A stretch of DNA of 64,000 nt from a virus (IMGVR_UViG_3300031992_000011); one strand, 5' to 3'; shown: positions 6,706-63,240, numbered from the stretch's first letter. The notes: a model not told the origin generated them from the letters alone. A program made the numbers and translations.

Positions 6706-7008
6706 ATGGAAAGAAGAATCAATATCACAGAAACAGAACTCCGAAGGATAATAAGCGAAACAGTGCATCGTGCGTTGGCTGAATCCTTTGGTGGCGACGG
6801 ATATGACGCGTATGTTGTGGTCGACGAGGCGTCAGGGGAGATAATCGGGAACTACGCCACGTCAGACCGGGAAGAGGCGATTTCTGACGCCGAGGATATG
6901 GCGAGGAGCGGCGGCAGATATATGGTCCTTGGATGTGTCGGGAATGAGTACAGTTTCGATGACGTGGTGTACGACACCGATCCGGACGGTCCGAGTTATA
7001 GGTTTTAG
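6706..7008 (+). CDS. leader-family protein (ITETELRRIISETV)
   Basis: Shared N-terminal leader motif. Confidence 0.8.
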   Translation: MERRINITETELRRIISETVHRALAESFGGDGYDAYVVVDEASGEIIGNYATSDREEAISDAEDMARSGGRYMVLGCVGNEYSFDDVVYDTDPDGPSYRF

Positions 7009-7030
7009 TTCCAAACCACAATAATGGAAT

Positions 7031-7067
7031 ATCCGTCAATGACTTTTTTCATTGACGGATTTTTTTT
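7031..7067. terminator. terminator between convergent genes
   Basis: ATCCGTCAATGA/TCATTGACGGAT 12-bp stem, T tail. Confidence 0.8.
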
Positions 7068-7087
7068 GTTAACGAACATTATCAGTT

Positions 7088-8806
7088 TCAAATCTTGCGT
7101 CCGTTCCTCTGAAGGCTGAATGACCTGACATCCGGATAAAGGAAAACATGTATTCCCAGAGCGGACGCCTTTTGACTTATGGTGTTGATGGTCGACTCCA
7201 TGTCATCCGGGAATTCAGACATGCTATGGTCGGCATAAAGGTCGATTTGCTTTATGTACTTATTGGCGTCAGGTATATATTGCGCCTTTGTCGTCAGACG
7301 GTCTTCCGCCTGTGACATTGGGTGAGTGTACCTGTCGTCATACACAGTCCCGAATCCGTCCCATCCGAATGACGTTGTGCCATTGGTCTGCATCATTTCC
7401 TCTTTGCCGTTATGAGCGAATATTCCGTGTGTATTGTCAGCAAACGCCATTGGGTCACCCTTTCCGTTACCGTAGTCGTAATATTCCCAGTCCATCGGTT
7501 TTACCCTAAGGTTGTGCCTCTTCCCGTTCTTTTCGTTAGGGACTTTGAAATTGTTGTATGTGTTCAACGCTCGACCGTCTATTGCAAGGCGCGCCACAAT
7601 TCCATCATACCCGTTGGAACCATATTCACCGTAGGCAAGAACCGGATATCCTTCGTGGAAATTCTTGTTCCGCGTGAATGACATGAAATTCATGTCTGGA
7701 CCGTCAACATATTCCATGTCCCCGGTTTCTGTGTTCAGAAAAGTCTCAGGACCCTGCGGAAAAAATTTGTTGTGCGACAACAGTTTAATTAGGTTGTCGG
7801 CATTTGTGTAATGATAAAGCAAGGATGACGCAGATTCACGCAGAGCCGAACGGACGGCTTCATTGACCATGCCCGTGATTCTTCGTCTGATGAATGATTC
7901 GGTAAATAAAATTTGGAACTTGTTGCTGTATGATATGTTCCCGTTTGATTTAACAAGATACACGCATTCGTTCTTTTCATCAACGGCAAACGTCTTGTCA
8001 TATTTCTTTATTGTCGGGTAGGTTTCTCCGCTTTTGCGGTCTTTCACGACACCTTCACGGTTCTCAGGCATCACATCGTCCAAAGTGAACACCATTTCCT
8101 CCGCCTTGGGTTTTTCTTGCAATCCATTGAATTCCATGTTTATGTTTGAACCGTCCCCGTCAGAAACGACATCCCCCTCGAAACCCATGATATTGTCGCA
8201 TTCCATCTTGGTGACCGGTTTCCCGCTGAATATTCTATTGTAAAGCGCGACAACTTTGTCGTCATCACCTTTCGAGACACAGTACTCCCATATCTCGACG
8301 CGTGAGTGTTTGTTCCCCGCGAACTTCCTCAGCAGTGTGCGGTTGTTGTCGAAAACAACTGATATTCCGAAGTCGTGATGTCCATTGCGCTCCCATTCGG
8401 ACGGGTTCACCGTGTGGTTTGACAACCTGAAGTCGCCCTTCACTTCTACATGCGGACCGTCCTTTGTGGCGATGACCATCGTGAAGTTGTGTCCCATTAT
8501 GTACTGGGACGCGCTCTTTATAAAGTTAAGACGTGCAGATTCAAGGTCGTCCGGCGTAGAGGCCGACATTATCTTCCGAACGTTGTCCCCGATTTTCTTG
8601 AAATAAGCGAACTGTGCGGCGTAATCCCTTTTCAAAAGGCATTTCTTCACAAAACCGGTGTCGTCCGGATTTCTGAAATCCCCGACGGGACATCTTGCGT
8701 GACCGCCGGTTGTCTCATCGAAGAATTCGTACATCATGCCTGTTCCATCTTTCTCGATCCAACTCTCCGAAAGCACAAGACGGGGTATATGTGTGGATAA
8801 AACCAT
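7088..8806 (-). CDS. multidomain protein with internal leader motif and C-terminal ADP-ribosyltransferase-like motifs
   Basis: Internal FTESFIRRRITGMVNEAVRSALRE; then LYHYT...MSFTR...QAEDR. Confidence 0.7.
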   Translation of the reverse strand: MVLSTHIPRLVLSESWIEKDGTGMMYEFFDETTGGHARCPVGDFRNPDDTGFVKKCLLKRDYAAQFAYFKKIGDNVRKIMSASTPDDLESARLNFIKSASQYIMGHNFTMVIATKDGPHVEVKGDFRLSNHTVNPSEWERNGHHDFGISVVFDNNRTLLRKFAGNKHSRVEIWEYCVSKGDDDKVVALYNRIFSGKPVTKMECDNIMGFEGDVVSDGDGSNINMEFNGLQEKPKAEEMVFTLDDVMPENREGVVKDRKSGETYPTIKKYDKTFAVDEKNECVYLVKSNGNISYSNKFQILFTESFIRRRITGMVNEAVRSALRESASSLLYHYTNADNLIKLLSHNKFFPQGPETFLNTETGDMEYVDGPDMNFMSFTRNKNFHEGYPVLAYGEYGSNGYDGIVARLAIDGRALNTYNNFKVPNEKNGKRHNLRVKPMDWEYYDYGNGKGDPMAFADNTHGIFAHNGKEEMMQTNGTTSFGWDGFGTVYDDRYTHPMSQAEDRLTTKAQYIPDANKYIKQIDLYADHSMSEFPDDMESTINTISQKASALGIHVFLYPDVRSFSLQRNGRKI

Positions 8807-8810
8807 CTAA

Positions 8811-8866
8811 TTAACTATTTTTAACATTAAATATTTTTATATTACATTAGTTTTTATGTACCTTCG
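8811..8866 (+). promoter_or_regulatory. early-type promoter (TTAA-N6-TTAA + TACCTTCG), overlapping a divergent late-like site
   Basis: TTAA at 8811 and 8821, -7-like box 8859-8866. Confidence 0.55.
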
Positions 8867-8871
8867 CCGAT

Positions 8872-9414
8872 ATGGAAAACAGTAAAGAAAGATTTCTGAT
8901 CGGGATTGACGACACGCACGGCAATTACAAGGAACATGGCGCTGTCGTGGTCCGAACCGCGGGTTTGGACGAGTATATCGCGTCACGTCGCCGACTGATT
9001 GGTGACGGCATAATGGAGTTCCATTCAACCAAGAGCATAGAGAACATCGGCGGGTGCGAAAACACGCCATGTGTGCTCGTGTGCGCCGACAATGGGACGA
9101 AGTCATGGTTCATTACTGAGGCGGGCAACCTCCCGACTGTCATCAATGACAAATTCAGCGGATGCTCCGTTGAATACAACACGTCAAACCCGTTGTTCGG
9201 ATACAAGACGTGGAGAGTAAGCGGGACTGTAAGCGACACAGAAACCGCTATCACACACGTGGTGGAGCACATGCTTTCTGACGACTACAATCAGGCGGAG
9301 CACACGAGAGTCGTTGTCGTGGACAAGGAAGGGAGCGAGGTTTCATTGCTTACACTGTATCTGGTCAAGACCGCCGATTGTCTGAAAAACAGAAAAAATC
9401 CGCAAAATCCGTGA
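8872..9414 (+). CDS. hypothetical protein
   Basis: 180-aa ORF downstream of promoter. Confidence 0.75.
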   Translation: MENSKERFLIGIDDTHGNYKEHGAVVVRTAGLDEYIASRRRLIGDGIMEFHSTKSIENIGGCENTPCVLVCADNGTKSWFITEAGNLPTVINDKFSGCSVEYNTSNPLFGYKTWRVSGTVSDTETAITHVVEHMLSDDYNQAEHTRVVVVDKEGSEVSLLTLYLVKTADCLKNRKNPQNP

Positions 9415-9830: not shown

Positions 9831-9901
9831 GCGTCCATAGCACAGAGGCAGTGCACCGGCTTCCCAAGCCGGGGACGCCAGTTCGATTCTGGTTGGACGC
9901 T
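9831..9901 (+). tRNA. tRNA-Gly(CCC)
   Basis: Cloverleaf GCGTCCA/TGGACGC, anticodon loop TTCCCAA. Confidence 0.95.
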
Positions 9902-9908
9902 CAAGTAC

Positions 9909-10119
9909 TGCGAGTATAGACCACTTAGTAGTGACCGGTGTAAGCGCTTGGGTAGCTCGAGGCAATGTCCGAGCGTGCAGTCGTGGGGCAACGTGCACCC
10001 TCAGACCGGTGAAACGTGTTGGTGCTTGTGAAGGCCCATACGAGGTGGCGCAACAGATACGGTTCCCGCGTGGGGAATATCCAAGCCCGTGACAGCCGCC
10101 GCTCGTCAATTTACTCGCA
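9909..10119 (+). ncRNA. unidentified multibranched ncRNA (~210 nt) between tRNAs
   Basis: Closing stem TGCGAGTA/TACTCGCA, GCTTGGGTA/TATCCAAGC, several internal hairpins. Confidence 0.6.
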
Positions 10120-10122
10120 TAT

Positions 10123-10197
10123 AGGGAAGTGGCTCAGTCCGGTTAGAGCGCTTGCTTTGGGAGCAAGAGGCCGCAGGTTCGAATCCTGTTTTCCCTA
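10123..10197 (+). tRNA. tRNA-Pro(TGG)
   Basis: Cloverleaf, loop TTTGGGA. Confidence 0.95.
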
Positions 10198-10211
10198 CAA
10201 AAAAAAATAAC

Positions 10212-10285
10212 ACTCCAGTGGCGCAATTGGTCAGCGTGTCTGTCTTATACACAGTAGGTTGTAGGTTCAAGTCCTACCTGGAGTA
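10212..10285 (+). tRNA. tRNA-Ile(TAT)
   Basis: Cloverleaf ACTCCAG/CTGGAGT, loop CTTATAC. Confidence 0.9.
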
Positions 10286-10309
10286 CATTTTTGAAAAACA
10301 ATCAGCATT

Positions 10310-10528
10310 ATGCCGAAACTTAATCTAAATGAAGTACTGAATGATGACGATGTCATCAAGGCGTTGAACCCTAAAGAATGGGAGTTCAGGTGTGGCAGTT
10401 GTGACAACTTCTGTGACATCTTCGGGAGATATTCCGAGTTCAAAACCATTGAAAGATGCCCGTTCGAGGGGAAGGTGACGTGGGACACTGATTGGAGAAA
10501 GATTGGCTGTAAGTGCTATTGGAACTAA
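10310..10528 (+). CDS. small Cys-rich protein within tRNA array
   Basis: CGSCDNFC...CPF...GCKC. Confidence 0.65.
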   Translation: MPKLNLNEVLNDDDVIKALNPKEWEFRCGSCDNFCDIFGRYSEFKTIERCPFEGKVTWDTDWRKIGCKCYWN

Positions 10529-10531
10529 AAT

Positions 10532-10605
10532 GGTCCTGTAACTCAGTTGGTCAGAGTGCCTGACTCATAATCAGGGAGTCGTAGGTTCAAGCCCTACCGG
10601 GACCA
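10532..10605 (+). tRNA. tRNA(CAT), probably Ile2 (lysidine type) or elongator Met
   Basis: Cloverleaf GGTCCTG/CGGGACC, loop CTCATAA. Confidence 0.9.
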
Positions 10606-10614
10606 CAATGCAAT

Positions 10615-10688
10615 TGCGGGGTGGAGCAGATGGTCAGCTCGTTTGGCTCATAACCAAAAGGTCGCAGGTCCGAGTCCTGCCCCCGCAA
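10615..10688 (+). tRNA. tRNA-Met(CAT), initiator-like body
   Basis: TGCGGGGTGGAGCAG 5' end typical of fMet; anticodon stem TTTGG/CCAAA; T-loop TCCGAGT. Confidence 0.85.
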
Positions 10689-10752
10689 CAACACAGTCTG
10701 CCGATAAGAGATGAACACCTATTTATGTCTATAGCAGATATAGCATTGAAAT

Positions 10753-11481
10753 ATGAATAGGATAAGGCAAATCATCAACGAGGCAGTCCGAGAGACCTTG
10801 TTGTTTGAAGCGATCAAGTCAAGTTGGTTGAAAAGGTTCTTCGCCGAGCATGGAGGTGTGGACAGCACTATGCACAACGACTACTTGGGCGACGCACAGG
10901 ATGAGGATATCGAGGACGTGAAGGTTTTTCCTTCAAAGAAGGAAGCGTTTGAAATGGCGTGGAAACTGAGACGTGAGCACATAACCGGTTTTCGTAAAGT
11001 ATATGTCGCCAAGGACGGCACGGCAGTTCTTGTCGTGTACAAGGATTCTGTAAAATCAAACCCGACATGGGGCGGAGAAGCGTCCGCAAAGACAGCCGAC
11101 AGGTATTGGAGAAACGGTGAAAGGTTCACTTCGTACAATCCTGAAACCGGTCAGAGAGTACCCGGATACCGTGACGACAGGGGCACCTACACATACAGTG
11201 ACGGAAAGTCAAGCGAAGGTGCCGCCAGATTCGGCATAAGGAATTCGGACGATTACCGTAGACATGTGGCGTTCGTCAGAGATCAGAGGGCGAAGGCAAA
11301 ACAGAACGGAAAAGAGGATGATTTCAACCGTTGGCGTGATGCAGAAGCCAAGAGAGTCAAAGACTACGCTGAAGAAAAGAAGAAGGAACGTGATTGGCAG
11401 AGGGAATATTTCGGGCTCAGTGACCGTGAGCGAGAACGCAGACTGTCAAGACCTGCCCCATTGGACAAGCGTTTCAAATAA
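10753..11481 (+). CDS. leader-family protein (IRQIINEAVRETLLFE)
   Basis: Leader motif; TATTTAT at 10720-10726. Confidence 0.8.
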   Translation: MNRIRQIINEAVRETLLFEAIKSSWLKRFFAEHGGVDSTMHNDYLGDAQDEDIEDVKVFPSKKEAFEMAWKLRREHITGFRKVYVAKDGTAVLVVYKDSVKSNPTWGGEASAKTADRYWRNGERFTSYNPETGQRVPGYRDDRGTYTYSDGKSSEGAARFGIRNSDDYRRHVAFVRDQRAKAKQNGKEDDFNRWRDAEAKRVKDYAEEKKKERDWQREYFGLSDRERERRLSRPAPLDKRFK

Positions 11482-11530
11482 CACGAATGCGTTAAACGGC
11501 CGCGCCGACATGTCAGTGCGGTCATTTTAT

Positions 11531-11602
11531 GCCCCCTTAGCACAGCGGTAGTGCAGTTCACTTGTAATGAACAGGTCGTTGGTTCGAATCCGACAGGGGG
11601 CT
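11531..11602 (+). tRNA. tRNA-Thr(TGT)
   Basis: Cloverleaf, loop CTTGTAA. Confidence 0.95.
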
Positions 11603-11694
11603 CAACATAGCAAGGTAACAACAAGGCGCGACTCCCCCAACCGCGCCGGTAACCCGCACGTAACAGCCGATAGGGGCGGCGACCTTGCCGATAC

Positions 11695-11766
11695 GCGGAT
11701 GTAGCACAACGGTTCGTGCACCAGCCTTCCAAGCTGGGGATGACGGTTCGATTCCGTTCATCCGCT
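11695..11766 (+). tRNA. tRNA-Gly(TCC)
   Basis: Cloverleaf, loop CTTCCAA. Confidence 0.95.
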
Positions 11767-11895
11767 CAAAAAATGGGCTGAAATTTGTGGGCATAAAGTT
11801 AAAACCTCAAGACGTTGAAAGCAGCAGTATAGGGACTGCTATTGGCGGTCAGATTAACCGTAGCCACATCTTGCAAGAGTTTCGGCCTTTAATAT

Positions 11896-11973
11896 AGCGG
11901 AGTGGAGCAGAAGCAGCTCGTCAGGTTCATACCCTGAAGGTCGTCTCAAACGGTGCAAGTCCTACCTCCGCCA
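11896..11973 (+). tRNA. atypical initiator-like tRNA-Met(CAT) with T-arm insertion
   Basis: A1:C72 mismatch, loop TTCATAC, T arm GT-CTCAAAC-GG TGCAAGT CCTAC. Confidence 0.6.
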
Positions 11974-11981
11974 CTAAAATA

Positions 11982-12105
11982 TGGGATTCTACACAGAGTA
12001 TTCTTTTAAGTAGATGCATATGCTTACTAGGATATTGGGTGGTATTAGATTTTGAAACTGCAGATAATCAAAATCTATTAGGAGGTTCGAGCCATCTGTT
12101 TCCCA
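11982..12105 (+). ncRNA. enlarged or degenerate tRNA-Gln(TTG)-like element
   Basis: TGGGA/TCCCA ends, GGTTCGAGCC T-loop, 10-bp TAGATTTTGA/TCAAAATCTA hairpin at the anticodon position. Confidence 0.45.
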
Positions 12106-12119
12106 CAAAATTCAAAAAT

Positions 12120-12193
12120 GGTGCGTTAGTTCAGTTGGTTAGAATGCCTGCCTGTCACGCAGGAGGTCACGGGTCCGAGTCCCGTACGCACCG
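12120..12193 (+). tRNA. tRNA-Asp(GTC)
   Basis: Cloverleaf, loop CTGTCAC. Confidence 0.95.
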
Positions 12194-12247
12194 CTTCTTG
12201 ATTGTTTGAATGAGTGGTTTGGGTCGTGTGAGCGCCCAGACCTTTTT

Positions 12248-12321
12248 GCTCCCTTAGCTCAGTTGGATAGAGCGTGAGGTTCCTAACCCCAAGGTCATGT
12301 GTTCGAGCCACATAGGGAGTA
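12248..12321 (+). tRNA. tRNA-Arg(CCT)
   Basis: Cloverleaf, loop TTCCTAA. Confidence 0.9.
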
Positions 12322-12325
12322 CTAT

Positions 12326-12411
12326 GGATGGGTGGCAGAGTTGGTCGATTGCACCGGTCTTGAAAACCGGCGGCCCGCAAGGGTCCGGGGGTTCGAATCC
12401 CTCCTCATCCG
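12326..12411 (+). tRNA. tRNA-Ser(TGA)
   Basis: Long variable arm, loop CTTGAAA. Confidence 0.95.
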
Positions 12412-12418
12412 CATAACA

Positions 12419-12502
12419 GCGACAGTGGCGGAACTGGTAGACGCGCCACCTTGAGGGGGTGGTGGGCACACGCCCGTGAAGGTTCGAGTCCTTTCTGTCG
12501 CA
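12419..12502 (+). tRNA. tRNA-Leu(GAG)
   Basis: Long variable arm, loop TTGAGGG. Confidence 0.95.
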
Positions 12503-12546
12503 CAGGCCGGCCGCGAGACGCGCAACGGTCCGTGGCATGGGCATTT

Positions 12547-12620
12547 GCTGCCATCGTCTAATTGGTTAGGACGTCGCCCTTTCACGGCGGAGATTACGGG
12601 TTCGAGTCCCGTTGGCAGTA
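12547..12620 (+). tRNA. tRNA-Glu(TTC)
   Basis: Cloverleaf, loop CTTTCAC. Confidence 0.95.
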
Positions 12621-12624
12621 CAAC

Positions 12625-12696
12625 GACTCCGTAACTCAGTGGTAGAGTATCGCACTTTTAATGCGAGAGTCGTGGGTTCAAGTCCCACCGGGGTCA
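12625..12696 (+). tRNA. tRNA-Lys(TTT)
   Basis: Cloverleaf, loop CTTTTAA. Confidence 0.95.
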
Positions 12697-12710
12697 CGAA
12701 CGCGACAAGA

Positions 12711-12783
12711 GGGCCGCTAGCTCAGATGGTAGAGCGCTACATTCGCATTGTAGAGGTCACCGGTTCGAATCCGGTGCGGTCCA
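12711..12783 (+). tRNA. tRNA-Ala(CGC)
   Basis: Cloverleaf with G3:U70, loop TTCGCAT. Confidence 0.95.
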
Positions 12784-12930
12784 CAGACAGAGCGTGTCGC
12801 GAACACGCACGCCATCGCACGAGAGGATTGGGGATGGTAACCCCGGATTGTGGAGGTCGTCTAACCAACGATAGAAGTGGCCGTCCGGTACATAATCAAC
12901 GGACAAACATCGTGACGCTTGGCATGTCAT

Positions 12931-13002
12931 GGGGTGATAGCTCAACGGTAGAGCAATTGGCTGTTAACCAATAGGCTGCAGGTTCGAATCCTGCTCACCC
13001 CG
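12931..13002 (+). tRNA. tRNA-Asn(GTT)
   Basis: Cloverleaf, loop CTGTTAA. Confidence 0.95.
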
Positions 13003-13076
13003 CAACTCAGAAGAACGGGCGAATCGCCCTGACAATGGGGATTGAACGGCACCGCCAAAAGTGGTGCCTTTTGCCG

Positions 13077-13160
13077 GGGAGCGTAACCGGTAATTGGTAG
13101 CCGCACGGACTGTAAATCCGTTCCTTAATTGGACTGGTCGTTCGAGTCGACCCGCTCCCA
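13077..13160 (+). tRNA. tRNA-Tyr(GTA)
   Basis: Variable arm, loop CTGTAAA. Confidence 0.9.
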
Positions 13161-13171
13161 CAATGACTGTT

Positions 13172-13245
13172 CTTCCTGTAGCTCAACTGAATAGAGCAAT
13201 GCACTTCTAATGCATAGGTTCTGGGTTTGAGTCCCAGCGGGAAGA
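13172..13245 (+). tRNA. tRNA-Arg(TCT)
   Basis: Cloverleaf, loop CTTCTAA. Confidence 0.9.
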
Positions 13246-13254
13246 CTAATAACA

Positions 13255-13327
13255 AGGCGGTTAGCTCAGTTGGTAGAGTGGCGGTCTCCAAAACCGCAGG
13301 TCGCACGTTCGAGCCGTGCACCGCCTG
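13255..13327 (+). tRNA. tRNA-Trp(CCA)
   Basis: Cloverleaf, loop CTCCAAA. Confidence 0.95.
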
Positions 13328-13335
13328 CAAAAAAA

Positions 13336-13425
13336 GGAAGCATACCCAAGTTGGTGAAGGGGGCGGCTTGCTAAGCCGCTAGGCCTCGGCGACGGGGCGC
13401 GGAGGTTCGAGTCCTCCTGCTTCCG
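13336..13425 (+). tRNA. tRNA-Ser(GCT)
   Basis: Long variable arm, loop TTGCTAA. Confidence 0.95.
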
Positions 13426-13432
13426 CACAAAC

Positions 13433-13505
13433 AGGGTAGTAGCGCAGTTGGTAGCGCGCTACGTTCGGGACGTAGAGGTCGCAGGTTCGAATCCTGTCTA
13501 CCCTA
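13433..13505 (+). tRNA. tRNA-Pro(CGG)
   Basis: Cloverleaf, loop TTCGGGA. Confidence 0.95.
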
Positions 13506-13513
13506 CTTGAATG

Positions 13514-13568
13514 TTAACAATTATTAACATGAAAAATTTGCAAGGTATATTTTTTTGTCGTACCTTTG
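13514..13568 (+). promoter_or_regulatory. Bacteroidota-type promoter for scaffold-RNA array
   Basis: TTAA 13514/13524, TTTG 13537, TACCTTTG 13561-13568. Confidence 0.8.
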
Positions 13569-13574
13569 CACTTG

Positions 13575-13662
13575 AAAACAATGGTGAGTGACAGGGTTAC
13601 TTCGCATACAAACTGTTACAAGATTAAAAAGCAACGAACCCTTCGCATATCTTCCTTGTTTT
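13575..13662 (+). ncRNA. scaffold RNA 1 (GGUUACUUCG family, minimal cargo)
   Basis: Closing stem AAAACAA.GG/CCTTGTTTT, AGGGTT/AACCCT, motif at 13595-13604. Confidence 0.65.
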
Positions 13663-13682
13663 TGTTCTTTGACATTCTTAAA

Positions 13683-13817
13683 ATGTGTGCAGTGACTGTG
13701 GCGGTTACTTCGTTGATTAGCTCATTTGGTAGAGCATAAGTTTATGGTACTTAGGGTAGATGGTTCGATTCCATCATCACAAAAGATTGTTTGCCGCCGC
13801 AAAATTTTCTCACACAT
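13683..13817 (+). ncRNA. scaffold RNA 2 with embedded tRNA-like body (anticodon ATG)
   Basis: ATGTGTG/CACACAT, TGTGGCGGT/GCCGCCGCA; D, anticodon and T arms at 13714-13779. Confidence 0.75.
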
Positions 13818-13825
13818 AACTCATA

Positions 13826-13958
13826 TTCCGCATAGTGACGGGCGGTGTTACTTCGAATTATTTAGCGCAGTGGTTAGCGCATCACACTTTTAATGCGAGA
13901 GTCGCCGGTTCGATTCCGGCAATGATTCTTTAAAAGCACCCCCATTTTTCTTGCGGAA
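13826..13958 (+). ncRNA. scaffold RNA 3 with embedded tRNA-Lys(TTT)-like body
   Basis: TTCCGCA/TGCGGAA closing stem; cloverleaf at 13856-13928. Confidence 0.75.
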
Positions 13959-14813: not shown

Positions 14814-16922
14814 ATGCTATACGACGAAGATATAAAGGCGAAGGAACAAATAGTTGAAGATGCCAAGTTGGTGTTGAAACGCGAGTTTGTCGGTATTGAC
14901 GACATCATTGACGGTGTAATGGAGAATGTGCGAACATGGTACATGTTTCCGAACCTGTACAACCGCCCGCTCATCATCAACCTGTTCGGAATGACAGGTG
15001 TCGGCAAGACAAGTCTTGTGCAGCGCATATCCCAGCTGCTTGATTTGGAAAAGGACTACTATTATTTCAACTTTGGTGAGATAAGCGAATGTACTGCGTG
15101 GGATATTGAAGAGAGAATAAATGACGAGATCAGCGACGAGAAATCGAACCGTGTTTTCGTGTATGATGAATTTCAGTACGCGTCTACCATTGCCGAAGAT
15201 GGAACTGAGAGAGAAAAGAGAAGCGGACTTAAACCGTTCTGGGAACTTATGGACGCAGGAAAGATGCACAAGCGGGACTCGGTTTACCTGTACAGTTCGT
15301 TATTCAGCACCGCCAATTATCTTATACGCATAAATAACGTGTGCAGAATACAACTTGAGAACGGCGCTTGGGTTAACCGCGACGAATGCCTCTCACATTT
15401 CGGCGAATACGAGATTTCCAGATTCAGCACAGTCCTCAACACAAGAGGCGCGAGCGGAGCCCCAACTGAACGACCGAATGCCATTGGAAAAATTGAAGCC
15501 GATGGAATGGGCAGTAATCTCCCAAACAACATGCCGAGCAAGGGAAGCATGCAATCATTCATATTGACAGCGGACACATTCTCCACAATCGTAAGGCGGT
15601 CTCGCAGGAGCAGAAGGGACACTGACAGTTACATAGAACTCTTCAACGAGTTTTGCACATACGATATAGACCAACTGATCGCCCGGATTGTCGACGTGTA
15701 CAACATGGCGTGCAAGGGATTTGATCTGGATTTTCACAATTCTCTCATCTTTGTCTTGGCGAACCTTGACGAGGCGTACAACATGACGTTCAACCTGAAC
15801 CCGGACATGTCGGCCGACACTTTCCATAAGATGACGAAAAATATCTCCATCGTCAACATCAAGAAGGCGCTGCAGAAAAGGTTCAGAAACGAGCAGATTG
15901 CGCGTTTGGGCAACATACATTTCATATACCCTTCATTGTCAAGCAAGACTTACCGCGAGATAATACGCCGAAACCTTGACAAGTTCACGGTTGAATTCCG
16001 TACAATGACCGGAATAGAGGCTTCTTATGACAAGAAGATTGTTGACCTTATATACAAAGACAGTGTGTTCCCGACGCAGGGGACGCGTCCGGTATTCTCG
16101 ACAATATATGATTTCGTGAACTCGAAGGTGTCAAACATCATCATAGACATATATGACACGGGTATAACAGCGCAGTCAGTACACTTTACCGCAAGCGGAA
16201 GGATGACAAAGGTTGTCGTCACAAGCGGTGACTGTCAAGGAAAAAAAGTGTTCAAGTACAAGAACGTAATCCGTGTCGACTCATTGAGGGACACGAAGAA
16301 GGACACACAACAGGCGATAGTGGCACTTCATGAGAGTGGACACTTTGTCACCTATCTCCTCACCTTCGGCAAGACGCCGGAAAAACTTGTGTCGCGCACA
16401 GCGAATGACGGCGACGGAGGGTTCATGCAGCATTTCGCCGATGACGATGTATCGTCATTCACCAAGATAGGTCTTAAAAGACATCTGATCGTTCTGCTCG
16501 GAGGATATGCCGCAGAGAAGATGTTTTTCGGCGATGACCACATGACGGGCGGCGCCTGCTCGGATCTGGAATCTGCGACAAAACTGGCCGTCAGGATGGT
16601 CCGTGAATACGGGATGGGGTCGTTCAAGTTCACATCAACGACAATGTCTTCACCGATGCATGAGAGGATGATACTTCTTGACCATGACAGGAAGAAGCAC
16701 GTCGATGACGAGGTCAACAGGTTAATAGAAGGCGCGTACAGTGAGGCGTGCGAATATCTCGACAAGTGGCGGAGCATATTAAAGGAATCTGCCGAGTATC
16801 TGTGCACACATTCATCCATGCCAAAGGAGATAATGGAAAAATTGTTCAAGAAAATACCGGCAGAAGCGATAGGGGAGAATTTTGACAGGCAGTTTTATAT
16901 GGATATGATACATAAAATCTGA
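14814..16922 (+). CDS. AAA+ ATPase fused to M41 (FtsH-type) zinc peptidase, no TM anchor
   Basis: Walker A GMTGVGKT, Walker B VYDEFQ, HESGH, LLGGYAAE, GACSDLESAT. Confidence 0.85.
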   Translation: MLYDEDIKAKEQIVEDAKLVLKREFVGIDDIIDGVMENVRTWYMFPNLYNRPLIINLFGMTGVGKTSLVQRISQLLDLEKDYYYFNFGEISECTAWDIEERINDEISDEKSNRVFVYDEFQYASTIAEDGTEREKRSGLKPFWELMDAGKMHKRDSVYLYSSLFSTANYLIRINNVCRIQLENGAWVNRDECLSHFGEYEISRFSTVLNTRGASGAPTERPNAIGKIEADGMGSNLPNNMPSKGSMQSFILTADTFSTIVRRSRRSRRDTDSYIELFNEFCTYDIDQLIARIVDVYNMACKGFDLDFHNSLIFVLANLDEAYNMTFNLNPDMSADTFHKMTKNISIVNIKKALQKRFRNEQIARLGNIHFIYPSLSSKTYREIIRRNLDKFTVEFRTMTGIEASYDKKIVDLIYKDSVFPTQGTRPVFSTIYDFVNSKVSNIIIDIYDTGITAQSVHFTASGRMTKVVVTSGDCQGKKVFKYKNVIRVDSLRDTKKDTQQAIVALHESGHFVTYLLTFGKTPEKLVSRTANDGDGGFMQHFADDDVSSFTKIGLKRHLIVLLGGYAAEKMFFGDDHMTGGACSDLESATKLAVRMVREYGMGSFKFTSTTMSSPMHERMILLDHDRKKHVDDEVNRLIEGAYSEACEYLDKWRSILKESAEYLCTHSSMPKEIMEKLFKKIPAEAIGENFDRQFYMDMIHKI

Positions 16923-18729: not shown

Positions 18730-18730
18730 T

Positions 18731-23242: not shown

Positions 23243-23268
23243 GAGTTTTATTCATTGGTTAGTTGTTT

Positions 23269-23302
23269 GGGCTGATTTGGGTGTAACCCGGTCAGCCCTT
23301 TT
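23269..23302 (+). terminator. intrinsic terminator
   Basis: GGGCTGATTTGGG/CCCGGTCAGCCC + T4. Confidence 0.7.
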
Positions 23303-23314
23303 GCAATAAGACAG

Positions 23315-24036: not shown

Positions 24037-24047
24037 ACAAATAAAAT

Positions 24048-38226: not shown

Positions 38227-38245
38227 AACTTCAAATTGAAACGCG

Positions 38246-51869: not shown

Positions 51870-53509
51870 TTATGAGTATAGCAAGTGAGATAAGCCGAAT
51901 ACAAACGGCAAAAGCAGATTTAAAAACTGCTATAGAAAATAAAGGTGTTACTGTTCCTAGTAGTACTAAGTTAGATGGTTATGCTGATTTGGTTGACAGT
52001 ATTGAGCAGGGTGGTAGCGGCACTGTTGAATCAAATGATGTTGAGTTTATCGACTATGATGGCACGATTGTTGCCTCGTACTCTGCTGCTGAGTTTGCTA
52101 ATCTTGCTGCGTTCCCTGATAATCCTGACCACACGGCAGATGGACTGGTTTCACAAGGTTGGAACTGGACACTGAGTGAGGCAAAAACCTATATGGCTGA
52201 CCACAAAGGTCTAATTATAGGCCAAATGTATACTACTGATGATGGTGCTACAAGGATCACAATAAACTTGACTGATAATAAAAGTACCTTCTACTTATAT
52301 TTTACGCAAAGTAAAACTAACGGAGTAACTATTAATTGGGGTGATGGAAGCCCTGTGGAGACAGGTTCTAGTACAACTATTACTATCACACATAGTTATA
52401 CATTAGCTGGAACATATATAATATCTTTATTGCCTGAGGATAATTGTACTTTAACAATTCCATACTCACCATATAATTTTACTATAATGATAGGAGGGAG
52501 GTCTAGTTCAACTGATAATGATAGAAATTCTGTAATAGCAATCAATATCGGGAAAAATGTAGCTGCTGAGAATAATCCATTTGGGATGCTCGGAAGGCTT
52601 CGTACTATAACACTTTCTAATAATATAGGGACATGTAAATTTTGGCGATGTACACATTTAAAAGCATTAGTACTTCCTCCTAGTATCACAGCACTGCCAA
52701 GTAACTTTGCTGAGAATTGTTTTTCTCTAGTAAAAATATCACTGCCTAATACTATTACAACTTTTGGCTCAGGTGCGTTTAGGTACTGTTACGCACTTAA
52801 AAAAATTACTATACCAAATAGCGTTACATCACTTGGAAGCGAGGCAATACGAGATTCTCTGTCATTAGAGAACGTACAGCTTTCAAATTATGCTGACATT
52901 CCTGATTTTTGCTTTTATAACTGTCGGTCATTAAAGGAAATAAATATTCCTAATAGCGTAGTGTCTATTAATAACTATGCTTTTGGGGATTCTAGTGTTA
53001 CGTCAGTAGTAATTCCTGATTCAGTAACTTCTCTTGGAAATTCAGTATTTGCAAACTGTTATAAGTTACAAGAACTGGTAATCGGCAATGGGATTACTAA
53101 TTTAGGCTCTGGCTTATGCTACTACTGTAAATCCCTGCGAAAAATAGTTATACCAGATAATATTACTGGCGCTTTTAATGGAATTGGTTCATATTGTCAA
53201 TCGTTAGAAAATATAATTTTACCAAGCACGATTACGGCTATTGGAAATTCTGCATTTGATGGGTATTATATTTTAGACCACCTAGATATACCGAGTAGTG
53301 TTACTTCTATAGGGACTAGCTGCATAAATACTGCATTACGATATTTAGTATTGCGCAGCGTATCGCCACCAACATTAGGCAATGCATCAAACTCGCTAGG
53401 CTCCACTTCTTTTACATTCCCGATATATGTTCCTGATTCGGCTATTGAAGCCTACAAGAGTGCTTACACGAACTATGCTAGTAGGATTAAGGGTATCAGC
53501 GAGCGTTAG
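51866..53509 (+). CDS. BspA-type leucine-rich repeat protein
   Basis: Repeats of AF..C..L..I.IP.SVT.IG; ends IYVPDSAIEAYK. Confidence 0.9.
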   Translation: MIMSIASEISRIQTAKADLKTAIENKGVTVPSSTKLDGYADLVDSIEQGGSGTVESNDVEFIDYDGTIVASYSAAEFANLAAFPDNPDHTADGLVSQGWNWTLSEAKTYMADHKGLIIGQMYTTDDGATRITINLTDNKSTFYLYFTQSKTNGVTINWGDGSPVETGSSTTITITHSYTLAGTYIISLLPEDNCTLTIPYSPYNFTIMIGGRSSSTDNDRNSVIAINIGKNVAAENNPFGMLGRLRTITLSNNIGTCKFWRCTHLKALVLPPSITALPSNFAENCFSLVKISLPNTITTFGSGAFRYCYALKKITIPNSVTSLGSEAIRDSLSLENVQLSNYADIPDFCFYNCRSLKEINIPNSVVSINNYAFGDSSVTSVVIPDSVTSLGNSVFANCYKLQELVIGNGITNLGSGLCYYCKSLRKIVIPDNITGAFNGIGSYCQSLENIILPSTITAIGNSAFDGYYILDHLDIPSSVTSIGTSCINTALRYLVLRSVSPPTLGNASNSLGSTSFTFPIYVPDSAIEAYKSAYTNYASRIKGISER

Positions 53510-54761: not shown

Positions 54762-55691
54762 TCATCTCATCGACCGAAGATACTCGCCCATCTCCTTTCT
54801 CGTCAAAGGATGGATATCTTCCTTGATTAGCATCCTGCCGGCAACCATATTCTGCCAGAAATCAAGCGCTTCTCCGATGCTGCGTTTTCTGTTGTTCTTG
54901 CGTCCGCTGAACGATGTTCCGTCATTGTCACGCCAGTACCTTTGACGCCATTCGTCGTCAGTTCCTCGGTCACGTTCAATACTGTCCATCGCATCTTTCC
55001 TGCTTCCGACCTTCTCTGCGTTGTCTCCCACAAAAGAAAACGCTTTGTTGCCCATCCTTGACATGTAGTTTGAGGCGGTGTCGATATGCAACTCATTGTT
55101 TTCACCTTTCTGATGCCACCCAGGGACTTCGCAATTGTTTGTGCCTATCAAATTTCCCTTAGTTTTACCTTTTTCCTTGTAGTAAATGGAATCTTGGTTG
55201 TAATACTCGGCAATGCGCAATAAATTGTCCAAGAAATTACTGTCATCATCACGGTTGACAACCAAGTATGATTCCTCAGAAGACTCATCGGTCATCCCTT
55301 CGGGGTAGACACCCTTTATTTTGGTTACACCATATCCTAACTGCAACAGTTCCGTCACCATCATCTTGTTTTTCTGACGGTTTTCCTCATGGGTAAAACG
55401 CTTGCCCACCACCCAGTCCTTGTTATGACCGAGATAAGTCGCCTTTTTGTCTCTAATGTCTTTCAACTCACTGCGGAAGGCACTGATGAATGCGCAGTCA
55501 CAATCCTTCAGCCATTGCAGCATCCTGTTGATATTGCTTTCGTTAATGCGCTGCTTTGTGGCGCGAACCACATTGTTGAAGTTGCGCACCTCGTCAATGC
55601 GGTGCTCATACATTTCATGCAGTGCCGTTTTAACGGTTTTGTGTATGATGCGTTGCAAATCACTTTCTTGCAAATATGTTGTCTTTTTCAT
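54762..55691 (-). CDS. leader-family protein with DUF3293-like domain
   Basis: LQESDLQRIIHKTV..LHE; FISAF..KGVY..EESYLV..YNQDSI. Confidence 0.75.
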   Translation of the reverse strand: MKKTTYLQESDLQRIIHKTVKTALHEMYEHRIDEVRNFNNVVRATKQRINESNINRMLQWLKDCDCAFISAFRSELKDIRDKKATYLGHNKDWVVGKRFTHEENRQKNKMMVTELLQLGYGVTKIKGVYPEGMTDESSEESYLVVNRDDDSNFLDNLLRIAEYYNQDSIYYKEKGKTKGNLIGTNNCEVPGWHQKGENNELHIDTASNYMSRMGNKAFSFVGDNAEKVGSRKDAMDSIERDRGTDDEWRQRYWRDNDGTSFSGRKNNRKRSIGEALDFWQNMVAGRMLIKEDIHPLTRKEMGEYLRSMR

Positions 55692-55806: not shown

Positions 55807-56472
55807 TCATCTCAATTTACCATGTAATTTTCCCCTGCAGAAATACCTGTGCTTTCCGCTCCATCCGGGTTCGACACACTCGGTAATCAGTCGGTCGACA
55901 TCATATTGCGATGTTCGTGCTTCAATGAGGTCATAATACGACTCCACGCATTCGAAGAACGGGATGCGGAACTTGAATTTGCGCGATATCTTTGTATAGA
56001 AATCACGGTCATTGGTGGCATCGACAATCTCATGCTCCTCTCGCTGAAGTTTCAGCGGTGAATTGTGGTCATCGCCTTCCCAATATTGGTACGACACATC
56101 GTCCCCGTTGGTCATGTCGACGAAAATCGCCGATTCCTGATTGAACATGTATGCCAATTTTATGAGTTCGTCGCGAGATATGTTGAAAACCATGACACTA
56201 GTTTCGGACGAGCCATACATTCCGTCCGTGACATAGAACCTGTACTGTCCGTTTTTCAACAAGTCCAACAGTTCTTCGTGTGACTTCTTGTTGTAGTCCG
56301 ATGGGAGGTCGCTACCGTCCGAACCCATCGGGTTCTGTGCTGATACTATGCCGATAGTCTTCACCCTGCGGTTCTTCCCCTGAATCGCCTGTTGGGCCTT
56401 TTGTCTGCGAGAGGTCTCATTCACGGCATCTCGCACCGCCTCGCTGATGATGTTCTTTAACTTGTCGTACAT
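55807..56472 (-). CDS. leader-family protein with DUF3293-like domain
   Basis: LKNIISEAVRDAVNE; VSAQNP..GMY..ETS..FNQESAI; TATTTAT at 56496-56502. Confidence 0.75.
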   Translation of the reverse strand: MYDKLKNIISEAVRDAVNETSRRQKAQQAIQGKNRRVKTIGIVSAQNPMGSDGSDLPSDYNKKSHEELLDLLKNGQYRFYVTDGMYGSSETSVMVFNISRDELIKLAYMFNQESAIFVDMTNGDDVSYQYWEGDDHNSPLKLQREEHEIVDATNDRDFYTKISRKFKFRIPFFECVESYYDLIEARTSQYDVDRLITECVEPGWSGKHRYFCRGKLHGKLR

Positions 56473-58568: not shown

Positions 58569-59012
58569 TTAACCTGCGCCGAGATCCTTAAGGTTGTTGT
58601 CTATCGCTGCGCTTTGCGTGAATTCACGGAACGCGTCCTTCGCCACTTCCATATCACGGAGTCCGCGGCGCTTGCTCATTGTCCCTCCCTTGGTCAAGTC
58701 AGTTCCGACACCCTGCGCAAGGTGTTTGACCGGGTTTTTCCCGACCTTCGCCATGAGTTTGTCGAGTTGTGCTCGCAGTTCGCTGAATTTCTTCACATCC
58801 ATTTTTTTCCCTTTCCTCAGACGGCGCATCTCTTCCTTGACATCCTCAATCATCCCCTCGATTTCCTTGGTGTCCTGTATGATGTCATCGGGTACGTTTT
58901 CCTCTGATGAAGAGTCTTTCCCTTCCTCGGCCTCATATATGGCGCGCCTCACTGATTCTGTGATGATTCTTCTGAGCGCGCTTTCGGTAAGTTTGATCGT
59001 TCTTTTCGCCAT
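58569..59012 (-). CDS. leader-family protein (LTESALRRIITESVRRAIYE)
   Basis: Leader; TATTTAT at 59030-59036. Confidence 0.85.
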   Translation of the reverse strand: MAKRTIKLTESALRRIITESVRRAIYEAEEGKDSSSEENVPDDIIQDTKEIEGMIEDVKEEMRRLRKGKKMDVKKFSELRAQLDKLMAKVGKNPVKHLAQGVGTDLTKGGTMSKRRGLRDMEVAKDAFREFTQSAAIDNNLKDLGAG

Positions 59013-59127: not shown

Positions 59128-59592
59128 TTAAATGTAGTCCTGAATTTTGTTGAGCAGCATGACGGCTCCCTTTGGGAGAACCCCATTGGCGTCCCACTCC
59201 GCCAACTTGCGTCGCATCTTTGCGGCCAGCTGGAAATCATCTGCAGTATTGCCGAACCATGTCACAGAAAGCACATCGCAGCCAAGACGTTTAGCCCAAT
59301 CATTTCGCAAGTAAATGAATCCCTTAGGGGTCATTTCGCCAATCTCACCGTATTTCGCGTTCCACCTGTCACGCAAATGGCTCTTTTCAAGACCGCGTCT
59401 GACGTATTCATTGCCCAAATTAACGAACGATTCACTCTGTTTGCGAGTCGGACTCGCCCACGTAAGTTGTCTGGCAGTCTCGGATCTTGGAACATCGTCA
59501 CTCGGACCCTTTATCTCATTAATGACACGCCTCACGCTCTCGCTGATAATGGTGCGGAGAGAACTCTCCGTCAAACGTATTTTTCTTCCCAT
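59128..59592 (-). CDS. leader-family protein (LTESSLRTIISESVRRVINE)
   Basis: Leader; TATTTAT at 59619-59625. Confidence 0.85.
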   Translation of the reverse strand: MGRKIRLTESSLRTIISESVRRVINEIKGPSDDVPRSETARQLTWASPTRKQSESFVNLGNEYVRRGLEKSHLRDRWNAKYGEIGEMTPKGFIYLRNDWAKRLGCDVLSVTWFGNTADDFQLAAKMRRKLAEWDANGVLPKGAVMLLNKIQDYI

Positions 59593-59638
59593 ATTATCTT
59601 GTCTTTAGTATTTTGATAATAAATATAGACTAAACCTG

Positions 59639-60817
59639 TTATGACAATGGGGCTTGTGTCCAGCCTGACGGCAAGACGCTCGAACTGCCTTGTGTGTCTA
59701 TGTACCTACAGTACACCGTCCCTGTCGGGGCGCATCCTGTGAGCCAATCTTGGGCATACCCATAACTTATTGTCGTGTCCACGTCGACCCTGACAGACGA
59801 CACGTTCGGTGAGTTCTGGTACATCTGTCGGAAGCACATCTCCTTAAAATCGCCTGTCACGGTGATGTCAGGCGTCACCCTAAGGTTCGGGCAACCGTAG
59901 AACATCAGCATGTAGCATCTTTCCGGCAGTGAAGTCGCCGGAAGCGCCGGGGCCACCTCTATCGCCGTGCTGTTGTACATCGCGAAGTAGCAAGCTATCT
60001 CCAACTGTGTCGAGTGGAGCACTGACGGTGTCGTAAGTGACGAGCACTCTGAGAACATACCGTAGTAGCATAATTGCGCCATCTGCGTCGCCGGCAGTTC
60101 CGGCGAACTTGTCAGTGAAGAGCATTGCGCGAACATCTCATCGTAGCATGCGTATGCGAGCGTCGTCGCCGGAAGCGCAGGTGTCCTAAGCAGTGACCTG
60201 CATGTGGCGAACATGAGTTTGTAGCACTGTGTCGTGGCGGTCATTGCCGGCAGTTCCGGTGCGGTGACGAGTGACGTGCACGCCTCGAACATTGATTCAT
60301 AGCATCCGCTGGAAAGTGTCGTGGCGGCCAGTGACATTTCTGACGCGTTCACCACGTGGGTGTTGTTCTTGAACATCTGTTTGAACGCATGGTCTTTGCC
60401 TGTAAGGTCACGGACTCCCCTGTAGTTGTCCCCGTACAGCATGGACAGCGGGTTGCCCGTCACGTCGAAGTCGCCTGTCGCGGAGAATGTACCTACCCCG
60501 GCCGAAGACGTCGGCGCTATCTCGGCCTTCCACAGGACTTTTTGCCCGGCATTTATCTGCGGAGTGCTCTCCCCTGCGGGAAGCTCCGTCCACGTTTCCC
60601 CGTCGTCGACACTGTAGAACGACGCGTTGGCGCTGAGCGAGAATGTCCCGGACTCAATGGCCGAGAACGTCAGGTAGTCGTCGGCCGGCGTGTGCGGACT
60701 GTTGTAAGTGACGGTGTCCGTGTCCGACTGAAGCGCCAGCCAAGGCTCTTCGTAGGACGGGCCGTGATACACCGCGTCGTGTTCGGCGGCAGTTCCGTAA
60801 AGATGGATATATATCAT
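59639..60817 (-). CDS. BspA-like repeat surface/virion protein
   Basis: 24-aa repeats LPATTL...CY..MF..C.SL. Confidence 0.85.
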   Translation of the reverse strand: MIYIHLYGTAAEHDAVYHGPSYEEPWLALQSDTDTVTYNSPHTPADDYLTFSAIESGTFSLSANASFYSVDDGETWTELPAGESTPQINAGQKVLWKAEIAPTSSAGVGTFSATGDFDVTGNPLSMLYGDNYRGVRDLTGKDHAFKQMFKNNTHVVNASEMSLAATTLSSGCYESMFEACTSLVTAPELPAMTATTQCYKLMFATCRSLLRTPALPATTLAYACYDEMFAQCSSLTSSPELPATQMAQLCYYGMFSECSSLTTPSVLHSTQLEIACYFAMYNSTAIEVAPALPATSLPERCYMLMFYGCPNLRVTPDITVTGDFKEMCFRQMYQNSPNVSSVRVDVDTTISYGYAQDWLTGCAPTGTVYCRYIDTQGSSSVLPSGWTQAPLS

Positions 60818-61917: not shown

Positions 61918-62017
61918 GCCGCAAAGGTAGCGAATTAATTTGGAAAAAAAACAATATACTTGATAAAAAATTAGCGAATCAGAACGATTCGCCAATATGT
62001 TCAACAAGTCCATTGGA

Positions 62018-62275
62018 TTAGTGCCTAGTACCAATACCGGATTGGTTATGCAAAATAGTTTGAACTTTTCTTTCTAGTTCTTCGCCTGATAACCCTTTGC
62101 TTGCCCAATATTTCCTAAGACCATCAACTTTACGCGGATCAACATTTTTACCCATCTCTGTTTGAGACCGTTCTCCCCAATTTGGATACTCAGAATTCTC
62201 CCTGATTATTCTTTTTACCGACTCTTTCACGATTCTGTGAAGGTCTGATTCGGTTAATCTTATTATTTGTTTCAT
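62018..62275 (-). CDS. leader-family protein (LTESDLHRIVKESVKRIIRE)
   Basis: Leader motif. Confidence 0.85.
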   Translation of the reverse strand: MKQIIRLTESDLHRIVKESVKRIIRENSEYPNWGERSQTEMGKNVDPRKVDGLRKYWASKGLSGEELERKVQTILHNQSGIGTRH

Positions 62276-62396
62276 ATTATGAAATGTGCTTAATTCATTA
62301 TTTTATTAATAACTATTACAATGAACGCGTATATTGTCCCCTTAATTTGATGATGAAAGATTTTTCCCCACTAATTATTGTGAAAAAGGGAAAGAA

Positions 62397-62771
62397 ATGG
62401 GAAAGATTGTCATATTGAGCGAGGAGTCAGCGAAATGCGTCAGAAGGGGTGTGCTGAACGAGTCGTTCCACCCGTTAAGGGCGCAGGTGCTCAAGGTGAA
62501 GAGATACCTTGACAGCATGTTCGTCAGGGACAAGCAGTACGACATAGACGCCGACGGAATGCCAGTCAAGAAGGCGACTGCCGTGATGATGAGCGACGGA
62601 CAGGCGCTCAAAGCGATGAACGGTGAAGAGCTTCTCTCGCTGCTTGACGACCATTTCGGGGACATAATCAAGAACGACTCGGACCGCAGGAAGTTCCTCA
62701 AGGCAGTGATAAACTATTGGTACACGGGTGACATCAGTAAGGAGGGGATGCTTCCTGTCAACACGCTATAG
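62397..62771 (+). CDS. leader-family-like protein (IVILSEE...VLNE)
   Basis: Divergent leader variant. Confidence 0.7.
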   Translation: MGKIVILSEESAKCVRRGVLNESFHPLRAQVLKVKRYLDSMFVRDKQYDIDADGMPVKKATAVMMSDGQALKAMNGEELLSLLDDHFGDIIKNDSDRRKFLKAVINYWYTGDISKEGMLPVNTL

Positions 62772-62787
62772 ACAAAACAGAGGACAG

Positions 62788-62820
62788 AAATGGGCGAGAC
62801 TTGTAGTTTCGCCCATATTT
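62788..62820. terminator. terminator between convergent genes
   Basis: ATGGGCGAGAC/GTTTCGCCCAT. Confidence 0.7.
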
Positions 62821-62844
62821 CTTGCTACTCTATTGTCCTTTTCA

Positions 62845-63240
62845 TTACCGGTCTTCTCTCTTTGAACCAACATATCCGTTTGACATGTCCAACACCGTGT
62901 CCCATCTGTCGTCGGAAAGTGTTATGATCAGTCGCTCGATACGGAATTGCTTTGCGAAAACGCCTTGCCCGCTGTATTTACGCTTCAGTTCATCGACCAA
63001 AGATTGCGCTTCTTCCTTTGAGTTTACGACCTCGTCTCCCCAATCAATGTCTTCCCAGTCGTGATATCCCACATTCTTGATGAAATCCCAGGTAACGCGG
63101 TATTTTCCTGTCCGCCTGACGTCAAATATGTCGTTGTCACCGTCGTCGGGGTCGAATATGCCCTCACGCAGTATCTTCCTGATTGATTCTTCAACCAGAC
63201 CTCTAAGGTCCGATTCTGTCAGTCTTATTCTTCTTTTCAT
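62845..63240 (-). CDS. leader-family protein (LTESDLRGLVEESIRKILRE)
   Basis: ATG at 63240; TATTTAT at 63260-63266. Confidence 0.85.
   Translation of the reverse strand: MKRRIRLTESDLRGLVEESIRKILREGIFDPDDGDNDIFDVRRTGKYRVTWDFIKNVGYHDWEDIDWGDEVVNSKEEAQSLVDELKRKYSGQGVFAKQFRIERLIITLSDDRWDTVLDMSNGYVGSKREDR

Follow-up and report, generated by a model that had tools for sequence, protein, structure and literature searches.

The internal proteins of T-even phages have only an N-terminal packaging leader in common, and act against restriction (PMC3012670; PMC12373910). In T4 the leader, known as the capsid-targeting sequence (CTS), is carried by IPI, IPII, IPIII and Alt, otherwise unrelated and non-essential products of late genes; it ends in hydrophobic-x-Glu, and is removed by gp21. 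We describe here a peptide, hereafter the tag, which recurs in the proteins encoded by a 64,000-nucleotide stretch of viral DNA (IMGVR_UViG_3300031992_000011), the whole of which is called the window. The tag is plausibly, at a rough probability of 0.6, an enlarged capsid-targeting and cleavage signal of the T4 type, used by a clade of uncultured T4-related jumbo phages.

The tag would thus probably play the role of the T4 CTS, though without recognisable similarity to it, and the system as a whole is likely to resemble the CTS/gp21 pair while differing in length, number of sites, position and scale. The two have in common a short leader on otherwise unrelated proteins, late genes, a hydrophobic-x-Glu end, and a T4-type capsid protein coupled to a S77 protease, both found here in relatives of the window; the T4 cargo is anti-restriction. 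Differences are several. The tag is 24-26 residues long and holds three cut-site motifs, whereas T4 leaders span ~10-20 residues. No sequence similarity is recognisable, both peptides being too short for a meaningful homology test. The tag occurs also at C-terminal and internal positions, and in two to three copies, whereas the classic T4 CTS is N-terminal. At least 12 tagged genes per genome, and 4,954 metagenomic clusters, are to be compared with 3 in T4 and at least 10 across T-even phages. Processing is established in T4, while the system described here is known from sequence.

Other packaging systems are more distant. In phiKZ-like jumbo phages (SPN3US, phiKZ, 201phi2-1) head proteins are cut after Glu at x-x-E, sometimes at several sites per propeptide, diverged paralogues keep conserved N-termini, and a role in directing proteins into the prohead is attributed to the propeptides (PMC5694885). 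However, cleavage occurs there at A/S/G-x-E, is carried out by a protease of the S80 family, and removes propeptides often longer than 100 residues; no single portable tag is spread across dozens of unrelated proteins. The Dar proteins of P1 (DarA, DarB, Hdf) are similar in function, since anti-restriction enzymes, one of them of methyltransferase type, travel in the phage head and are injected. Yet, they are loaded by an ordered hierarchy of protein-protein interactions, and not by a common cleavable tag. Encapsulin cargo-loading peptides are short as well, and send varied cargo into a HK97-fold shell from either terminus of the protein. In contrast to the mechanism envisaged for the tag, they are not cleaved and bind the shell protein directly; they are non-viral, and unrelated in sequence to the tag.

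Tag copies were searched by a strict regular expression over all six frames of the window, and then by a hidden Markov model (HMM) seeded with the nine copies so retrieved. These are exactly nine full tags, eight of which are N-terminal (6706, 46022, 49647, 54762, 58569, 59128, 62018, 62845; 38-51 bits in the HMM), one internal (49073). The seed profile, run against 1,528 six-frame open reading frames (ORFs), added three matches, 55807 (E=2.5e-5), 21639 (E=1e-3, two half copies) and 7088 (internal, E=8e-3). The profile was then iterated for three rounds over the window and three related contigs (G003, G005 and G001). Genes in the window with a full or a half tag are as follows (aa, amino acids; nt, nucleotides).

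6706-7008, plus strand: tagged gene, 100 aa; tag at aa 3-26 (nt 6712-6783), HMM score 38 bits
10753-11481, plus strand: borderline half-tag gene, 242 aa, within the tRNA array; half tag at aa 4-16, 7.5 bits; TATTTAT at 10720, 26 nt before the ATG
21639-22043, minus strand: half-tag gene, 134 aa; two tandem half copies at aa 8-18 and ~28-37, 14.5 bits; TATTTAT at 22082
46022-46297, minus strand: tagged gene, 91 aa; tag at aa 2-25 (nt 46223-46294), 46.6 bits; TATTTAT at 46325, 27 nt before the ATG
49073-49609, minus strand: internal-tag gene, 178 aa; tag at aa 79-103 (nt 49301-49375), 34 bits
49647-49910, minus strand: tagged gene, 87 aa; tag at aa 2-25, 44.2 bits; TATTTAT at 49937
54762-55691, minus strand: tagged S-adenosylmethionine (SAM) lyase-like protein, 309 aa; tag at aa 3-27, 42.4 bits; PF23780 at aa 99-186, 46.4 bits (above cut-off)
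55807-56472, minus strand: half-tag gene, 221 aa, DUF3293; 23.9 bits; PF11697, 31.2 bits (above cut-off); TATTTAT at 56496
58569-59012, minus strand: tagged gene, 147 aa; tag at aa 4-28, 47.1 bits; TATTTAT at 59030; hairpin at 58536-58518, after the stop
59128-59592, minus strand: tagged gene, 154 aa; tag at aa 3-26, 43.2 bits; TATTTAT at 59619
62018-62275, minus strand: tagged gene, 85 aa; tag at aa 3-27, 50.8 bits; hairpin at 61996-61970, after the stop
62845-63240, minus strand: tagged gene, 131 aa from the Met at 63240; tag at nt 63160-63234, 42.2 bits; TATTTAT at 63260, 19 nt before the Met

For the last ORF (62845-63285) the likeliest start is the Met at 63240, and the tag is then N-terminal. 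Half tags correspond to the second half of the tag only in 55807 and 21639; the score of 10753 is near the upper end of those of shuffled sequences. As a control, N-terminal 45-residue segments of 868 called proteins were scored against composition-matched shuffles: 8 bits or more were reached by 39 of the 868 real N-termini, and by 0.6 segments per shuffled set of equal size. The preliminary description of the window had attributed the motif to fifteen ORFs, and proposed to model the leader and to scan the genome and its relatives. The scan bears out the motif, well above the shuffle control, and the list shrinks to nine full tags, two clear half tags and the borderline 10753. The tag is unsupported by N-terminal profile scoring in 53629 (3.8 bits) and 62397 (<3 bits), and the internal copy in 7088, found by the seed model only, disappeared with the iterated one.

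The consensus drawn from an alignment of 331 distinct copies is R/K-T-I-R-L-T-E-S-D-L-H/R-R-I-I/V-K-E-S-V-K-R/K-V/I-L-N-E. Arg and Lys abound in the tag, which forms an amphipathic helix with hydrophobic residues spaced by 3-4 positions. In the AlphaFold model of 59128, most homologues of which keep the tag, a low-confidence helix (residues 9-26) is followed by a disordered linker and by a globular domain, confidently predicted from about residue 50, against which the tag helix is unpacked (low pLDDT). No Pfam or PHROG family spans the tag, and a literature search for the letters of the motif gave no relevant match.

In the alignment, Glu is found at tag positions 7, 16 and 24 in 99, 85 and 98% of the copies, and Asp in 1% at most. 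[LIV]-x stands before each of the three, and the residues after them are Ser, Ser and Gly/Asn/Ala, respectively. The statement that most copies end in hydrophobic-x-E is correct for 7 of the 9 full copies in the window; the first site (L/I-x-E) is intact in all 9, the middle one in 8. The first nine residues (M-K-R-T-I-R-L-T-E) are, in length and ending, what we take to be like a CTS of the T4 style. The capsid proteins of G003, G005 and G001 carry I/L-K-E and L-I-x-E↓A sites (the arrow marks the cut) at the position at which T4 gp23 is cut, just before the conserved region aligning with the N-terminus of mature gp23. T4-type and phiKZ-type prohead proteases both cleave after Glu, multiple sites per propeptide are frequent, and T4 Alt is processed at its two ends (PMC5694885). 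A S77 prohead protease (PF03420) and a gp23-type capsid protein (PF07068) are encoded by G001, G003, G004, G005 and G006 alike, and the G003 capsid protein matches 2,550 records of T4-like phages as well as solved structures of T4 gp23. The G003 protease gene (22353-24155, plus strand; 2353-4155 in L015) encodes 600 aa instead of ~240, and the match is split by an insert of ~370 aa, intein-like (Intein_splicing, 26 bits, below cut-off), located beside the conserved L-D-H-P-S.

These contigs are relatives of the window. Matches at 30-48% identity link about 30 proteins of the window to IMG/VR contig G003 (339,287 bp, with direct terminal repeats, rated complete), and are in part collinear; the order is shared between 14.8-23.7 kb of the window and 78-70 kb of G003. 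The tag is present in G003, G001 (272 kb), G004, G005 and G006. When the profile was compared with 1.84 billion proteins, 4,954 cluster representatives were found at E<=1e-3, and 122 at E<=1e-10; the ten matches looked up are all unnamed metagenomic proteins. The sole match among 185,579 species genomes is a human gut bin named Prevotella sp. CAG:1092 (G008), in which ten tag copies and a gp23 fragment reside on contigs C293, C282, C271 and others. The bin is probably a jumbo phage co-binned with its Prevotella host, and hints at Prevotella as host. A megablast search with 22 kb of the window found no match among GenBank phages. Among the nearest T4-like phages with a name, Flavobacterium phage immuto, Microcystis phage Mel-JY01 and the uncultured huge phage LR756511 gave no tag match at E<=0.01, and LR756508 gave weak matches only.

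Tagged genes are linked to head genes by a sequence element, TATTTAT. In the window, 13 of 18 TATTTAT sites are intergenic, set in the orientation of the gene, and 17-51 nt before the start codon.

4173-4179, 10720, 50114 and 63289, plus strand: TATTTAT, late-promoter-like element
3330, 22082, 46325, 49937, 56496, 59030, 59619, 61705 and 63260, minus strand: TATTTAT, late-promoter-like element

In G003 the element precedes the genes for the capsid protein, the 513-aa acidic protein in scaffold position, the protease and the 1,479-aa tail sheath protein, and is therefore read as a putative late promoter element of the lineage. It is found also upstream of the protease genes of G005 and G001 and, in the window, upstream of the lysis amidase gene (61014) and of the genes for the large, function-unassigned proteins 50145, 63322 and 4231. 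Tagged genes are significantly enriched in TATTTAT, both in the window (6/10, against 7/81 other genes; p=4e-4) and in G003 (8/12 against 44/390; p=1.6e-5) and G001 (8/8 against 58/301; p=3e-6). They are probably late, because the element is common to head and tail genes. The preliminary description had assigned a TATTTAT of its own to most tagged genes, arranged as cassettes between terminators. The former claim stands for 8 of 12 genes, in which the element is 17-38 nt before the ATG. Genes 6706, 49073 and 54762 lie downstream of a gene having one; 6706 starts 17 nt past gene 5186-6688, in a gene run headed by the TATTTAT at 4173, and 49073 follows 49647 at a distance of 37 nt, in the same direction. 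None precedes 62018. The claim on cassettes is weak. A few strong hairpins occur past the ends of 62018, 58569 and 49073, yet terminator-like sites number 18 in the window, no enrichment over the 16.6 expected from shuffles. TATTTAT also precedes two G003 ORFs (38044-39303 and 264789-266018) with N-termini similar to TnpB/OrfB-type transposon proteins, one of which is ~3 kb from a tagged gene that adjoins the capsid and scaffold-position genes.

The tag is portable. Once it was masked, 36 tagged proteins from the window, G003, G005 and G001 yielded one BLASTP pair at E<=1e-3, within G003, and no pair within the window, as had been anticipated in describing the sequences after the motif as unrelated. 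When two window copies share a residue, the codon also agrees in 37% of cases, while codon usage alone predicts 31%, and the copies are on average 51% identical as nucleotides. Distant contigs, of 30-39% GC, retain the tag in their proteins. Judged from these figures, conservation is acting on the protein and not on the DNA.

What the tag is attached to varies widely. Cargoes are 85-310 aa long, and correspond to SAM lyase, DUF3293 and methylase domains, or have no recognised domain; 126 of the 140 top database matches are devoid of Pfam domains. In G005 a C-terminal tag is carried by an adenine methylase of EcoRI type, and in G003 an internal tag by a 709-aa protein with a sub-threshold ART-PolyVal match. 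The SAM lyase-like cargo of 54762, preceded immediately by an extra site (I-D-E↓V), is informative. Among the 120 listed of its 242 homologues, 48 carry the tag, and the others feature the second half of the tag only, a very short helical leader, an unrelated N-terminus, or start directly with the cargo. In 77 of 113 homologues the conserved part of the cargo, which starts with V-x-N-F-N, has a [LIVMF]-x-E at its start or one residue ahead. The cargo is made mostly of ORFans, with some anti-restriction-like domains (SAM lyase here, EcoRI-type methylase in a relative). This range would suit the functions that known packaged proteins, such as T4 internal proteins, Alt and P1 Dar, have in anti-restriction and host takeover. 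For no tagged protein of the window was a tagged orthologue seen in G003, suggesting that the repertoire turns over fast.

We infer docking, cleavage, packaging and injection of tagged proteins along these lines. Tagged proteins would be made late, alongside head proteins. The amphipathic basic helix would dock them to the scaffolding core, or to the inner shell, of the assembling prohead. The S77 protease would then cut after Glu at up to three [LIV]-x-E sites (L-T-E↓S, I-x-E↓S and L-x-E↓small residue), and so free the cargo and chop the tag into small pieces able to exit the head. The cargo would remain with the DNA, and enter the host at injection.

Circumstantial tests agree with a role in capsid targeting and processing, as suggested in the preliminary description: T4-type capsid protein and S77 protease in the relatives, shared TATTTAT, invariant Glu, unrelated cargo and anti-restriction-like domains all point the same way. 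Several observations weigh against it. No head gene resides in the window, and the link to the protease rests therefore on relatives at 30-48% identity. [LIV]-x-E is a short motif, frequent in charged helices. The N-terminus of the scaffold-position protein has no significant similarity to the tag (-1 to 2 bits); a likeness between the two, suggestive by eye, was dropped on this score. A tblastn search with a two-tag protein found no match among GenBank phages, and no cultured phage with the tag emerged. Gene 62018 lacks an upstream TATTTAT, and SAM lyases of T3-type phages are early, not virion, proteins. Nor does the simple picture of an N-terminal leader account for all copies. In the window, G003, G005 and G001, ~80% of the copies are N-terminal, and ~20% C-terminal or internal. 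Top database matches include 133 N-terminal, 140 internal and 22 C-terminal copies, and two copies per protein are usual among them. C-terminal and internal positions exceed the T4 precedent. The idea that internal copies are fused genes retaining the start Met was ruled out, as a Met is found at the matching position in 12 of 151 only. Still, a tag cut at its first site would leave the cargo from either end, and C-terminal and internal positions are thus compatible with the model.

Different roles may be envisaged for the tag. It could be a general docking or oligomerisation helix serving other late assemblies, as an anchor for tail, baseplate or fibre adaptor, similarly to the N-terminal tailspike anchors of multi-spike phages, or by coiled-coil self-association. 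The helix is amphipathic, with the 3-4 spacing of hydrophobic residues, is found at either end of proteins or inside them, and tagged genes are close to those of large late proteins, including a BspA-type leucine-rich repeat protein, and to the lysis amidase gene. Yet, this is unlikely. Cargoes are small, some are enzymatic domains (SAM lyase, methylase) rather than fibre or spike folds, and no fibre/spike or depolymerase C-terminal domain was found on tagged cargoes when these were checked for receptor-binding-protein anchors. Cargo is, moreover, wholly different even among related phages, and near-absolute Glu at three [LIV]-x-E sites, with hardly any Asp, is unexpected for a plain coiled coil. 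Less probable still is that tagged proteins are packaged, but retain the tag as a basic helix binding DNA or the core on the mature protein. T4 heads contain ~1000 molecules of internal proteins embedded in DNA (PMC3012670), and the abundance of Arg and Lys, the many proteins with two copies and the C-terminal location of some of them would be accounted for. On the other hand, the invariance of three Glu, each followed by a small residue, would be unneeded, and an additional [LIVMF]-x-E is located at the tag-cargo junction in the SAM lyase family.

The possibility that the tag is recognised by a phage AAA+ machine, which would unfold or degrade late proteins in a timed manner, seems quite remote. 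Candidates are a FtsH-like protease (14814-16922) and an AAA ATPase (42255-43886), the window encoding a protein with AAA and peptidase M41 domains, DnaJ and another AAA ATPase; degrons can be either N- or C-terminal. Yet, the residence in the same genome is the only link between the tag and AAA genes, the [LIV]-x-E pattern and the promoter shared with head genes are left unexplained and, to our knowledge, known FtsH degrons are not sequence-specific helices like the tag. The location of the motif at the 5' end of most genes, close to a shared promoter element, might finally suggest a nucleic acid feature, as a shared translation start region or a recombination site, or the remnant of a recent duplication in a single gene family. 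The chance is minimal, given the near-random codon agreement and the 51% nucleotide identity reported above, the unrelated downstream sequences, and the retention of the motif as protein at varying GC content. A DNA- or RNA-level element, or a recent duplication, is ruled out by codon usage and by the BLASTP analysis of masked cargoes.

If the tag is a loading signal for the head, as favored here, a simple profile search would mark as injected proteins thousands of phage ORFans that otherwise escape annotation. These would be the best candidates for disabling host defences during the first minutes of infection, in phages of abundant gut and rumen Bacteroidota. The three-protein trick of T4 would turn out to be scalable to a large, modular means of delivery, in which the cargo may be tagged at either end, and a compact, self-removing packaging signal would become available to engineer cargo-carrying phage heads. 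A bolder proposal, which we advance tentatively and at somewhat less than even odds, is that a clade of T4-like jumbo phages of rumen and gut exploits one bidirectional tag (N-terminal, C-terminal or between domains), endowed with triple cut sites, to load and inject dozens of fast-changing effectors. In such case the ~5,000 tagged clusters would be a catalogue of proteins for counter-defence and host takeover in the first minute, and multi-tag proteins would be polyproteins cut apart within the capsid.

Additional features of the window are worth reporting. ARAGORN detected 21 tRNA genes at 9831-13929 (plus strand), and ORF 10753-11481, with its own TATTTAT, lies inside this array. Rfam revealed two more weak tRNA-like matches (11896-11973 and 13714-13779) and a weak YrlA match (12588-12655, 27 bits). 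Accessory genes include RNA ligases, a polynucleotide kinase-like protein, a nucleotidyltransferase, a sigma-70 family factor and an amidase. The FtsH-like protein (AAA and peptidase M41; 14814-16922) and a full-length DnaJ (17635-18729), which includes J, zinc-finger and C-terminal domains, are both conserved in G003; no IMG/VR relative of the former, 702 aa in length, was found by word patterns, but tblastn on G003 did find one.

Two pairs of genes share N-termini of a different type, unrelated to the tag and with no family match. Proteins 4231-5184 and 5186-6688 have in common M-Y-Y-P-K...T-K-T-W-Y-Q-Y-N-P, proteins 59639-60817 and 63322-63999 ...Y-x-E-P-W-x-A...V-T-Y-N. The region 22205-23242 encodes an outer-membrane protein of OmpA type, whose signal peptide is Bacteroidota-style; the protein is host-derived in appearance, and both its Pfam matches are below cut-offs. 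Downstream of the late-promoter gene 50145, the region 51872-53509 encodes a 545-aa leucine-rich repeat protein of BspA type (PF13306, 176 bits), which may be host-binding.

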